From positions 25,606,001 through 25,670,000 of the forward strand of contig OX597842.1 in the NCBI GenBank assembly GCA_951406725.2: 64,000 bases of DNA. The letters run 5' to 3'. Below, in pieces: positions 29,656 to 64,000 of the stretch. Position numbers and translations under genes: made by a program. This DNA is from Octopus vulgaris (Eukaryota). The stretch's first letter is position 1. Every line of letters starts with the position of its first letter. Below the pieces are notes generated by a model that saw only the letters and a list, made by a program, of their open reading frames with translations, did no database searches and was not told where the DNA came from.

Positions 29656-31921
29656 GCTATATTGAAGAGGATCAGCGAGAGCGCGTCCCCCTGTCTAACA
29701 CCTCGACGAATCTCAATGGGTTCACTAACTTGCCCACTGACTGAGAATCTGGTAGTACTGCCTTCATAGATCCCCTCCACAAGCGCTATAACGTGCTCGT
29801 GGAACCCAAGTCTCCGCAGTCCTGCATACCCCAACGTGTGCAAGACTGTATCGAAGGCCTTCGAGAGATCCAAAAATGCAACCTCCAGCCGCGGTATTCT
29901 CAGTCGGGCTGGCCTCCCCATCGTGCGACTGACGAGCTGCCAAAGGAGAAACACGAGTTCTCACTGCAGCCGTCAGCGTGGAGGAAGCCTCTTTGGCTTG
30001 GATTCAGGGGAGTTACCTGAAGCATGCGCTTGGCGACCATTTTAGAGAATAAACGATACACCGCAGAACATATCGTGATTGGTCGCCAATTTGCAAGATC
30101 GTATGGGTTGTCTGCCCTCTTTGATACGAGGACAGACCTACCCCGCTTCAGGATATCGGGTACTTTACCCGCCAGCAACATGCAGTTGCATATATTTGCT
30201 AGGACAGCTGGGTCCATTGATTTGATTTCACTAACAGTGATACCATCCGGACCCGCCGCTGAGGAGATCTTCATCCTACGTCTATTGATCTTAACCTCTT
30301 CCACGGAGAACGGACTCAAGATGGAGCCGCTCTCAACCTGGGAGGAGGAGGGGTAGTTCTTCAGATCAACCTCAGGGCCTGGAGCAGAAAGCCTCCCTCT
30401 ATAGAAATCCTCTATAGCATAAAGTGGGATAGGGCATTCCTGCTCCCTGTCCTCGCCTAACACAACTGCAAGGAGCCTCTTCCTATCTTTCTTGAATAAG
30501 TCCTGGTGGCGGGCGTACGCATGTTGCCTACCCCGCCGCCTAAAATTGGTGTTCTTGCTAGGATTCCTAACTCTACTATTCCTGGTAGTCTCTTCCCTAC
30601 ACGATCCGTAGTGCTCCACCCAGTCCTCTACTCTTCTCTCAAAAGAGCCCCAGGCAGCCGAGGTCCCGTCTTCTACGAGTTCCAATAGGGCCTCGGAGAA
30701 GACTGCAGACCAACGGGTATGCCCGGGACATGCAGCATCGAGGAAGCGATCCCTCCAGTCAAAATTAGACTGGGGTCCTCCCCTGATTTGTGGTTGGGAA
30801 TTGGTCACGGACTGCTCTGACCCTTGATGACTCTTACGAGCCCTTTCGGCCAGGTCAGCCCTTTTCGATCCTACCTGTTTGGCTGTTTTGCCCGGTAGGA
30901 ACCGTGCAATGGCTGCATTGATCTGCTTTACCCCTGTCTTTTTCAGCTCACTCCTTTTCAACGAGGACCGCTACTTCCTCGTCAGACTAACAGCCCCTGT
31001 GTCTTTGGCCTGTTGCCTCAGCAGCGGCTGCCCGATCGGCACGTTTTTTCGCAATTTGCTCTAAGCAAGCAGCAATCCTGCGCAGCACATTTGACATAAG
31101 CATCCTGTAGTGGCAAATGCCCGATCGACCTACGGCCGTCAAAAAAGAATGGCTGCAGTGGTCACAATCAAAGGAGACTAGAGCCGGACTAGGGGCAGGC
31201 GCTCTAAATGCACTACCATCGCACCGACCTGCGGACACCTCATAGTGGAGGTGCCCGCTTTCCCTATCACATTTACTGCATTTGTATACAGGCTTAATGC
31301 CATGTCTACATATTACGTGCTCCCGCCAAACATTGGGGGAGGAGAAGCGCAGAGGACATAGCGGACTGGCTATGGAGCATGACGCGCAGGGAATTGTAAG
31401 TGAGAATTCACTCCCAACTGGAGTGGGGCTTCATACCCCCACTACCTCCTCTCGATCCATTTCTAAATTAAGAGAATGAATGGGGAGGTCCCTAGCGACC
31501 CTATCTCAGTCCGTCTCTAAATCAGAAGACCGGACTTCATCGATGGGGTCATGTGCTAGGTCCAGTGGGAGTTGTTCTCCTCTCACTATCAGGGAATGTT
31601 CTTTGTATTCTAGTCTAAATATGTTTACTCTATTTCTATCATACTTCAGTGTCGGACGCAAATTTAAGCACCCGACACTGGTCCTGTCGATGCCTATTGA
31701 GCCACTTGGACTTACTTGCGCCGGAGATGACTCGTCCCGTGCAAGGGAGGGTAGTCCTTCGGCTGACCGCATTTGGTTAATGCCGTCAGCCTGACGTGTG
31801 GGCCCCATCCCGGACCCACAGGCCACCAGTTTAACGGCGCCTAGCTGCCGTGTGTTCCTAAACTTATTAGTTAGCATCACTATTCTTAGCGGCATTTTAC
31901 TAGGGATCCTAGCCGAAACGA
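29656..31921 (-). mobile_element. R2 non-LTR retrotransposon copy 1 (5'- and 3'-truncated, frameshifted)
   Basis: Zinc fingers, Myb remnant, RT motifs SAAGPDGI, NWRPITICS, QRGF..DGCSEN, AFLDLSKAFDTV, GVRQGDALS.ILFN; abuts the 28S R2 target. Confidence 0.92.
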
Positions 31922-31978
31922 TTAAGAGAGTCATAGTTACTCCTGCCGTTTACCCACGCTTGGTTGAATTTCTTCACT

Positions 31979-62048: not shown

Positions 62049-64000
62049 GCTCTATTGAAGAGGATCAGTGAAAGCGTGTCCCCCTGTCTAACACCTCGAC
62101 GAATCTCTATGCGTTCACTAACTTGCCCACCGACTGAGAATCTGGTAGTACTACCTTCATAGATCCCCTCTACAAGCGCTATAACATGCTCGTGGAACCT
62201 AAGTCTCCGCAGTGCCGCTTATACAAGAGAGTGCGAGACTGTATTGAAGGCCTTCGAGAGATCCAAAAAGGCAACCTCCAGCCGCGGTATTCTCAGTCGT
62301 GCTGGCCTCCCCATAGCGCGACTAACGAGCTGCTGAAGGAGAAATGAATTCTCACTGCAGCCGTCAGCGCGGATAAAGCCTCTTTGGCTTGGATTAAGAG
62401 GAGTTACCTGAAGCATGCGTTTGGCGACCATTTTAGAGATTAAACGATACACCGCAGAACATATCGTAATTGGTCGCCAGTTCGCAAGATCGTATGGGTC
62501 GTCTGATCTCTTGGGTATGAGAATCGACTTACCCCGCTTCAGGATCTCGGGTACTTTACCCGCCAGCAACATGCAGTTGCATATATTTGCTAGGACAGCT
62601 GGGTCCATTGCTTTGATTTCACCTATAGTGATGCTATCTGGACCCACCGCTGAGGAGATCTTCATTTGTTTTCTACTCACCTTAATCTCCTCCACGGAGA
62701 ACGGACTCAAGATGGAGTCGTTCTCAACCTGGGAGGAGGAGGGGTAGTTCTTCAGATCTACCTTAGGGCCTTGAGCGGAAAGCCTGCCCTTATAAAATTT
62801 CTCTATTGAATAGATTGGAATAGGGCATTCCTGCTCCCTGTTTTCACCTAACACAACTGCAAGGAGCTTCTTCCTATTTTTTCTAAATAGATCCTGATGT
62901 CGGGCATAAGCTTGACGCTTATCCCGACGCCTAGGCCTAATGTTACTCTTGTTCGGTGTGTTCCTATCACTAACTAAATTTCTCCTGTTGTTGGTAACTA
63001 CCCTGCGCGATTTATAATGCTCCACCCAGTCCTCTATAGTTTTCTCAAACGAGCCCCAAGCAATCGCTGTCCCGTCTTCCATGAGTTCCAAAAGGGCCTC
63101 GGAGAAGACTGCAGACCAGTGGGTATGCCCGGGGCATGCAGAATCGAGGAAGGGATCCCTCCAGTCAGAACTAGACTGGGGTTCTCCCCAGATCAGCCCT
63201 TTTCGATCCCACCTGTTTGGCTGTTTTGCCCGGTAGGAACCGTGCAATGGCTGCATTTATCTGCTTTACCCCCGTCTTCTTCAGCTCTGACTCCTTTTCA
63301 ACGAGGACCGCTACTTCCTCGTCGGACCAACAGCCCTTGCATCTTTGGCCTATTGCCTCAGCAGCGGCTGCCCGATTGGCACGTTTCTTTGCAATTTGCT
63401 CTAAGCGAGCAGCAATCCTGCGGGCATTCGCCACTACAGGATGCTTATGCCGAACGTGCTGCGATCGACTTATAGCCGTCAAAAAAGAACGGCTACAGTG
63501 GTCACAATCAAAGGAGGCTAGAGCTGGACTAGGGGCAGGTGCTCTAAATGCACTGCCATCACATCTACCAGCGTGACCCCTCAAAGAATGGAGGTGACCG
63601 CTTTCCCTATCACATTTGATGCATCTGTAAACAGGTCTAATACCATTTCTACAGATAACATGCTCCCCCCATGAATGGGGGGAGGAGAAGCGCAGAGGAC
63701 ATAGCGGGCAGGCTATGGAGCATGACGCGCAGGGAATTGTAAGTGAGAATTCTCTACCACCTGGAGTGGGGCTTGATACCCCCACTACCTCCTCTCGATC
63801 CATTTCTAAATTAAGAGAATGAATGGGGAGGTCCCTAGCATCACCCTCTCTGTCCGTCTCTAACGAAAACCGGACTTCATCGATGGGGTCATGTGCTAGG
63901 TCCAGTGGGAGTTGTTCTCCTCTCACTATCAGGGAATGTTCTTTGTATTCTAGTCTAAATATGTTTACTCTATTTCTATAATACTTCAGTGTCGGACGCA
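62049..64000 (-). mobile_element. R2 copy 6 (3'-truncated, runs off the window)
   Basis: ORF 63171-63926 shows all three fingers CPLC..H, CIKC..HAGRC and CDHC..HVRHKH plus Myb; ORF 62219-63256 has RT motifs. Confidence 0.92.

Follow-up and report, generated by a model that had tools for sequence, protein, structure and literature searches.

The window, a stretch of 64,000 nucleotides of Octopus vulgaris DNA, carries six tandem minus-strand units, each made of satellite, a LINE scrap, an upstream 28S piece, the 5′ part of a clade-A R2 element and again satellite. We consider it probable, with room for doubt, that these are dead 28S–R2 5′ fragments in a satellite array, whose outer breaks stayed fixed while their interiors were overwritten via recombination from several formerly active R2 lineages. 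The initial annotation had proposed that one R2-bearing rDNA piece was captured and amplified as a composite unit. Its identifications (28S, clade-A R2, LINE, satellite), the shared breaks and the composite amplification hold; one capture and amplification, however, is not the whole history, because there are two junction types and the R2 bodies are mosaic with a divergence shaped by purifying selection.

Array layout and the two junction types

Copies 1–4 are mutually adjacent, as are copies 5 and 6, and all run head-to-tail with a unit spacing of 4.5–6.2 kb. We reproduced the annotated unit starts (29656, 34136, 38651, 44869, 57223 and 62049) and adjacent-unit spacings (4480, 4515, 6218 and 4826 bp); the starts are the R2/satellite break, which is common to all six copies. 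This break lies directly after the LILFNIA codons, as had been described, but the GCTA placed there is found in five of the six copies only, copy 6 reading GCTC, and comparison with a contig continuing into R2 and with the satellite register extends the microhomology to 5 bp (TGCTA on the plus strand). At the other end, the LINE/28S (RTE/28S) break is identical in the five scorable copies, as annotated, and copy 6 is indeed incomplete, being cut by the window end. Head-to-tail multi-kb units with common junctions are what a TE-derived macrosatellite shows. The reported absence of downstream 28S, 18S and ITS was borne out: beyond the 28S pieces of the units, no rRNA in Rfam matches the 64-kb window at E ≤ 0.01, and a search of the window for a downstream-28S motif found none. 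For the R2 3′ half, the C-terminal portions of four complete R2 proteins gave no match in the window. A place outside the rDNA, as annotated, is thus established for these 64 kb only.

The unit spacer, exemplified by copy 5 (60071–60844), is in part ~70% like a 161-bp satellite, and the stretch from there to copy 6 (60845–62048) consists of 309-bp satellite monomers. This monomer type also separates the other adjacent copies, and the R2 break lies within such a monomer. A higher-order duplication joins arm one (24900–34136) to arm two (~52850–62049) at an offset of 27.3–27.9 kb. The LINE scrap is an RT fragment of an AP-endonuclease (RTE-like) LINE on the minus strand at 32096–32474, 36603–36982, 42411–42789, 48472–48850 and 59691–60070 in copies 1–5. 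Homologues of this 380-bp scrap are up to 76% identical and belong to ~1000-aa proteins with AP-endonuclease (EEP), RT and DUF6451 domains, an architecture that would fit an RTE-clade LINE.

The 28S pieces, all on the minus strand, are genuine: Rfam LSU models match those of copies 5, 2 and 1, and that of copy 4 at E 1.9e-16, while the piece of copy 3 was recognised via its alignment to the others. They measure ~150–190 bp, as annotated, and all begin at the common LINE/28S join. The stated joining of R2 at GTAACTATGACTCTCTT applies to copies 1, 2 and 5 (three of the five scorable) and fails in copies 3 and 4. Accordingly, we distinguish a type A junction, ending ..ACTCTCTT and found in copies 1 (31924–32095, with a 20-bp deletion), 2 (36411–36602) and 5 (59499–59690) only, from a type B junction, where the 28S of copies 3 (42260–42410) and 4 (48321–48471), both with a 34-bp deletion, stops at ..ACTATGA. 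In copies 3 and 4, an extra 1384 and 1233 bp, respectively, lie between the 28S and the start point of the other copies (40876–42259 and 47088–48320). Type A is the junction of a 5′-truncated R2 insertion, and type B corresponds to the predicted start of a full-length R2. The initial ~45 bp of the 28S piece in copy 2 are a variant common to copy 3 only, and both 28S variants occur with both junction types, in four combinations. The LINE piece groups by junction type, with copies 1, 2 and 5 being 2.6–3.7% apart from copies 3 and 4. Non-28S flanks, the mark of non-target-specific R2 (R2NS), were not found, the 28S junction being kept in all five scorable copies.

R2 bodies and the predicted ribozyme

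All R2 bodies lie on the minus strand and are of R2-A type. Copy 1 (29656–31923) is 5′-truncated, runs from the ORF start to the RT motif QGD..LILFNIA with stops and frameshifts, and has the body from the most divergent lineage. Copies 2 (34136–36410) and 5 (57223–59498) are likewise 5′-truncated with type A junctions, and the 27.5-kb duplication makes copies 1 and 5 positional paralogues. The coding parts of copies 3 (38651–40875) and 4 (44869–47087) and the cut copy 6 (62049–64000) have in common a 68-bp frameshifting deletion, to which copy 4 adds two other 1-bp deletions.

R2 clade A is characterised by an N-terminal set of three zinc fingers, of which two are CCHH and one is CCHC (PMC5035012). 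The annotated CCHH–CCHC–CCHH plus Myb arrangement was confirmed, with copy 6 encoding, in a single frame, all three fingers (63710–63441) as well as Myb (from 63332), and zinc fingers 2 and 1 and Myb can be aligned to R2Tg. Among solved structures, the best matches of the RT are R2Tg (161 bits), the Bombyx-type 1114-aa chains (131 bits) and LINE-1 (49 bits). In a quick IQ-TREE RT tree of 123 rows, the window copies fall inside a 41-row set (SH-aLRT 97), of which 24 rows have three fingers by a regex count, one being a bird R2; the suggested RT phylogeny thus groups them with clade-A R2, at a resolution that does not separate subclades. By fingers, RT grouping and 5′ 28S junction, the copies are members of R2 clade A.

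The copies are fragments: the complete RT, restriction-like endonuclease and 3′ UTR of an intact element are missing, and every copy stops ~30 codons short of the YADD motif. A contig of run X15 matches 44868–44987 with 11 differences and continues as an open RT frame past the break of the copies; it fits the homologue pattern, so donor-like sequence exists. Disabling lesions (stops or frameshifts) occur in every copy and, judged by sequence, all copies are dead.

HDV-like R2 ribozymes are marked by P1 (~7 bp), P1.1, P2 (at least 5 bp), P3/L3 with U-G, P4, and the C and A of J4/2 (PMC3774820). Copies 3 and 4 show these hallmarks in predicted structures on the minus strand at 41739–42259 (P1 5′ strand at 42259, P3/L3 from 41841, J4/2 C at 41750) and 47949–48320 (P1 5′ strand at 48320, P3/L3 from 48051, P1 3′ strand at 48036, J4/2 C at 47960), with a predicted P4 of -26 to -28 kcal/mol. 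A descriptor that was relaxed post hoc, after the fold was seen, detects the fold with P1 at the 28S junction in both type B copies but not in the three type A copies or in any of 300 shuffles; it also gives two further matches in 128 kb of both strands. The strict descriptor, which requires C at L3 position 3, has no match in any of four regions, and no Rfam ribozyme family matches 46300–48600 at E ≤ 10. Between copies 3 and 4, L3 differs by C>T. The J1/2 contains a 28S-target remnant whose score was equalled by none of 2000 shuffles; 28S-target duplications in R2 J1/2 have been described (PMC3774820). In copy 3, J1/2 also holds 17 copies of a 15-bp repeat, which we considered as a 28S-target copy and rejected, the likeness being one 6-mer reached in 238/2000 shuffles, which is no evidence. 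The UTR/ORF join is spanned by a ~87% alike contig from another organism's sequencing run. Because of this bridging and the ribozyme fold, we take the extra segments (40876–42259 and 47088–48320, minus strand) to be the R2 5′ UTR of the type B copies; as an antisense insertion of another element they were dismissed, six-frame translation giving no long frame.

Divergence, selection and the origin of the patchwork

In the RT, dN/dS is 0.16–0.43 at dS up to 0.39, with purifying selection in 15/15 pairs (p 5e-3 to 2e-13, the pairs not being independent), and in the ZnF–Myb region dN/dS of copy 1 versus the others is 0.28–0.33. The private changes of copies 1, 2 and 5 each show purifying selection (p 6e-5, 3e-4 and 2e-3), while selection is not detectable in those of copies 3, 4 and 6; with transversions alone, it is seen in four of the six pairs tested and not in two. 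By these substitution patterns, the R2 bodies appear to differ like formerly active lineages under purifying selection. Between copies 1 and 5, mid-R2 differs at 203/1280 positions (15.9%) versus 5/379 (1.3%) in the adjoining LINE piece and 0.4–3.2% in 1 kb of duplicated flank. The divergent tract of copy 1 covers ~1.3–1.7 kb at 13–26% divergence with in-frame indels. Mosaicism was equalled in 0/2000 permutations for R2 alone, and likewise for 28S, LINE and spacer together.

In the explanation that we prefer, one piece of an R2-bearing rDNA unit, comprising ~190 bp of 28S and the front of R2, would have been fused at one end to the LINE scrap and at the other, via the 5-bp microhomology, to a satellite monomer. 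Unequal exchange in the satellite would have multiplied the unit and later duplicated the 27.5-kb block. Homology-anchored gene conversion may then have swapped tracts of tens to ~1,700 bp for sequence of other R2 copies, with R2 elements resident in the true rDNA, or further orphan copies, as predicted donors; one conversion may have exchanged the entire 5′ junction, through 28S and R2 homology, giving the full-length and 5′-truncated types, and exchange between units would have shuffled the tracts. The outer breaks would never change because homology stops there. Gene conversion is inefficient between sequences 10–20% apart, which counts against this mechanism.

The data do not separate this from repeated insertion into orphan targets and then the spread of one deletion. 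In that scenario, 28S with the whole target would have been amplified first, several R2 lineages would have inserted by target-primed reverse transcription, and a late deletion would have removed downstream 28S together with the 3′ half of R2 and then been spread by unequal exchange. In its favour, two junctions are typical of separate insertions, LINE piece and junction type go together, and PMC10257491 cites R1 and R2 elements of Bombyx mori that inserted site-specifically at places other than 28S genes. However, all six copies have an identical 3′ break and lack both downstream 28S and an R2 3′ end; copy 1 also shares its truncated junction with copies 2 and 5 although its body is of another lineage, so that recombination is required anyway, and we regard this scenario as unlikely.

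Still less likely is that collapsed or misjoined repeats, polished with reads of other R2 copies, produced the mosaics. The region is highly repetitive and the best runs contain only 0.53–0.61 of the sampled words of copy 4, but the divergent tract of copy 1 exceeds what read polishing does, the junction types differ by 1.2–1.4 kb in length, and all 30 bins of copy 4 are covered by three DNA or unlabelled runs with three organism labels. Even with wrong joins, the divergent R2 lineages and common breaks stay real sequence. Counting against our preferred explanation, among the 32 matches to sequencing-run contigs that were listed (1440 more exist), none bridges the R2/satellite break. Satellite bins beside this break have a depth like that of R2 bins in runs X3, X6 and X8, which is only a hint, since summed contig depths are not copy numbers. 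No run listed was labelled as RNA.

We similarly give little credence to the array drawing R2 protein–RNA complexes via the 28S site, with cDNA rewriting the bodies into a lineage archive that supplies silencing small RNAs; the array itself is probably without function. Single capture and amplification with neutral divergence, as first proposed, would explain the common outer breakpoints and the shared 68-bp (copies 3, 4 and 6) and 34-bp 28S (copies 3 and 4) deletions. It is contradicted, unless the mosaics are assembly artefacts, by dN/dS far below 1, the two junction types, and an R2 divergence ten times that of adjoining DNA in paralogous copies, and we now think it very improbable. Retention by selection of truncated copies as ZnF–Myb DNA-binding repressor genes against R2 accords with dN/dS below 1 in that region between copy 1 and the others, but is hardly credible given stops or frameshifts in every copy and a selection signal strongest in an RT cut ahead of its catalytic motif.

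Relation to known rDNA-element arrays

An R1 tandem array apart from the rDNA lies in D. melanogaster X heterochromatin (PMC5932611, citing Kidd and Glover 1980). As we propose for the octopus, an rDNA-specific retrotransposon with a 28S scrap became tandem via unequal exchange, with later deletions and insertions; it is head-to-tail, with 33-nt rDNA duplications from double insertion. Unlike it, the octopus units hold R2 5′ parts, are spaced by satellite and LINE scrap, and combine two kinds of junction with bodies of several lineages. In D. simulans, R1/R2 fusions form a tandem array and R2 copies also occur outside the rDNA, the latter 1–2% from rDNA-resident R2 and with the R2 3′ end present (PMC2718515), whereas the copies here are up to 16% apart, carry a selection signature and retain the 28S/R2 5′ junction. 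The heterochromatic SCLR repeat of D. melanogaster (Stellate, copia-like, LINE and rDNA fragments) likewise combines rDNA fragments with retroelement pieces in a composite unit; its parts are otherwise different, and the portions of PMC6325706 on which we draw report neither R2 junctions nor multi-lineage replacement. In Bacillus rossius, dead, 5′-truncated R2 junctions were also multiplied by unequal recombination rather than by retrotransposition, and a genome has more than one R2 lineage, but those copies lie within the rDNA and are bordered by 28S at either end (PMC4370867).

The units share with R2Tg (PDB 9dou/9nl3; PMC5035012, PMC3774820) three zinc fingers, Myb, RT and the 28S site, and with clade-A R2 a predicted HDV-like 5′ fold and a long J1/2 with 28S duplications (PMC5035012, PMC3774820); unlike R2Tg, they lack the catalytic RT half, endonuclease and 3′ UTR, and within the 64 kb they lie in no evident rDNA unit. 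In a search of the openly accessible literature, we found no report of a cephalopod R2 (R2-mining supplements may list octopus R2) and none of a non-rDNA R2 array with a multi-lineage patchwork. Tandem rDNA-element arrays outside the rDNA are already known from Drosophila.

If our preferred explanation is true, dead R2 fragments parked in satellite keep exchanging sequence with once-active R2 lineages, which means that neither dating nor tree-building can treat orphan R2 copies as plain fossils, and exchange between rDNA-type sequence and satellite arrays is a recurrent process. Gene insertion tools use clade-A R2 proteins (PMC13586686), and the cephalopod host adds a clade-A R2 in which several lineages co-exist, along with a predicted ribozyme whose L3 sequence is unusual.

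Architecture of the array and identity of its R2

The array is real, and the six copies and unit spacings described in the initial annotation are borne out. All R2 fragments are in minus orientation and break off right past the LILFNIA codons, at 29656, 34136, 38651, 44869, 57223 and 62049 (copies 1–6). In the five scorable units, Rfam LSU matches and alignment placed 150–190 bp of 28S upstream of R2, and a 380-bp LINE RT scrap adjoins this 28S at one constant join (5/5), followed by a 774-bp spacer and then 309-bp satellite. Besides these pieces no rRNA was found in the window, downstream 28S included, and four full-length R2 proteins had no match there to their C-terminal portions. 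The letters at the R2/satellite break are common to the satellite monomer and R2; as a contig from sequencing run X15 matches 44868–44987 and continues past the break as an RT frame resembling that of homologs, the microhomology is 5 bp.

Copy 6 carries CCHH, CCHC and CCHH fingers and a Myb motif within a single frame, and three such fingers plus Myb define R2A in the available text of PMC5035012. The best solved match is R2Tg. A quick tree that combined 120 homologs with three copies from the window places the latter inside a 41-row set (SH-aLRT 97) of mostly three-finger proteins, with finger number counted by a crude regex. Among proteins, the R2 frame is most similar to one from Octopus vulgaris (80% identical), and the next matches among long proteins reach about 42% or less; taken with the SINEs of the window, this makes an octopus host likely. 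P0001, an Octopus vulgaris gene model outside the window, repeats finger–Myb and RT-start segments in series, 70–90% like the window R2, and may mark a further site where 5′ pieces of R2 are clustered in tandem.

Two 28S/R2 junctions and a predicted ribozyme

The initial annotation gave one 28S/R2 junction for the array, but the exact junction 17-mer occurs three times in the window, and the full-length 5′ ends had been missed. In copies 1, 2 and 5 (type A), 28S ..CTCTCTT meets R2 about 30 bp ahead of the first ATG with CTT microhomology, at the position expected for R2 top-strand cleavage; this junction bears the mark of a 5′-truncated insertion. In copies 3 and 4 (type B), the last 28S bases are ..ACTATGA, and an extra segment of 1384 and 1233 bp, respectively, precedes the type A start point, where R2 reads ..CAACTT. 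At 31922–31923 copy 1 reads ..CTCTCTTAA and copies 2 and 5 ..CTCTCTTTA, a one-base difference that is possibly due to chance.

The extra segment is predicted to fold like an HDV-like ribozyme, with a 7-bp P1 starting at the first base past 28S with a G–U pair, a J1/2 of 250–410 nt, a 6-bp P2, P3, a 7-nt L3 with U at position 1 and G at position 6, P1.1, a long P4, and a J4/2 with C-N-A. The descriptor, tuned post hoc after a stricter version gave no match, hits 2/2 type B copies, 0/3 type A copies and 0/300 shuffles, as well as two further places in the window's 128 kb (both strands); no Rfam family matches the region. For R2, the available text of PMC3774820 describes such HDV-like elements as well as long J1/2 loops that contain duplicated 28S sequence, and here J1/2 contains an 11/12 match to the 28S end (0/2000 shuffles). 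A contig from run X8, about 87% alike, spans the UTR/ORF join, and the core at 48024–48086 reappears with different flanks in run contigs (loose ends at 48024 in X3, X6 and X15, and at 48086 in X6, X8 and X15). Given the ribozyme-like fold, the 28S-end match, the bridging contig and the recurring core, type B most likely represents R2 beginning at its full-length 5′ end, and on this reading the junctions in the array stem from two or more insertion events. Joints that link 47029/47118 with 48087, together with loose ends at 48262 and 48318, reveal further R2 5′ ends in X3, X6 and X8; these keep the ribozyme core with a different J1/2 or a shorter UTR, suggesting several R2 5′ variants in each genome.

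Patchwork of the R2 bodies and history of the array

The single captured and amplified 28S–R2 piece proposed initially overlooked a multi-donor history: copies that drifted from one founder are contradicted by dN/dS, by the contrast between copies 1 and 5, and by mosaic site partitions. RT dN/dS is 0.16–0.43 in all 15 pairs, at dS 0.08–0.39 (about 290 codons), and 4/6 pairs keep the signal with transversions alone. Low dN/dS is likewise seen among the changes confined to copy 1, 2 or 5, whereas copies 3, 4 and 6 have few private changes, and these lack the signal. The LINE scrap diverges by merely 0.3–3.7% between units and shows no significant selection signal. Because every copy has stops or frameshifts, the signature is best explained as a legacy of donors whose divergence took place during their active life.

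A duplication (offset 27.3–27.9 kb) makes copies 1 and 5 paralogs. Its unique-looking flank shows 0.4–3.2% divergence across 1 kb and its 161-bp satellite 4–7%, and the two copies differ at 203/1280 mid-R2 sites versus 5/379 in the LINE scrap. Adjacent informative sites agree far above shuffled expectation in R2 alone (0/2000, 109 sites) and likewise in 28S+LINE+spacer, and the site partitions change along R2. We infer that no fewer than three or four donor haplotypes contributed to the RT part. Both junction types are found with a 45-bp variant of 28S, which is the first 45 bp of 28S at 36555–36602 (copy 2) and 42363–42410 (copy 3). Its ~8 sites unlike copies 1, 4 and 5 hint that a second 28S donor, itself diverged, was involved.

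The simplest account is a single capture by microhomology that would then have been amplified along with the satellite, with other R2 copies repeatedly serving as donors for homology-anchored conversion and with exchange among the units themselves. Constant outer breaks, a patchwork inside them and a 5′ junction that can be swapped are what it predicts, and all three are seen. The main rival, repeated R2 insertion into orphan 28S targets and the spread of a single deletion through the units, is also compatible with the data but requires loss of the 3′ half in every unit. Mosaics made by assembly are possible. Three runs cover 30/30 bins of copy 4, but among the run pieces listed, a minority of the total, none bridges the R2/satellite break. 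Sixteen of 24 runs are listed as containing part of copy 4, under four organism labels, and 3 of them contain half or more of its words.

Known cases and other features of the window

The available text of earlier reports describes rDNA-specific elements arrayed outside rDNA, namely an R1 array (PMC5932611), an R1/R2 fusion array with extra-rDNA R2 copies diverged by 1–2% (PMC2718515) and SCLR (PMC6325706), as well as dead R2 amplified by recombination (PMC4370867) and satellite–rDNA associations (PMC10946416, PMC10257491). PMC5035012 names oyster R2, and octopus is absent from its main text as available. Our searches of the open-licence literature turned up neither an orphan R2 array built as a multi-lineage patchwork nor a cephalopod R2. 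Among the features of the array, the more interesting ones are its full-length R2 starts and its multi-donor history.

The window is rich in satellites, with 63-, 139-, 161- and 309-bp arrays. The 139-bp satellite (14166–24280, about 73 copies, 96% alike) is bordered by monomers of the 309-bp type, in which the 139-bp sequence is included. The 63-bp arrays (3094–3470, 6600–8157 and 12688–12887, up to 25 copies) are open in several frames and were presumably expanded from SINE-associated sequence; we take the SINEs of the window to be octopus-type. C-terminal fragments of other LINE-like frames lie on the minus strand at 1433–1963 and 11060–11617, with no Pfam match. Finally, a minus-strand frame with one stop at 50292–50860, which to us resembles an LTR-retrotransposon gag fragment, adjoins a SINE-like stretch in a spacer-type region without LINE, 28S or R2.
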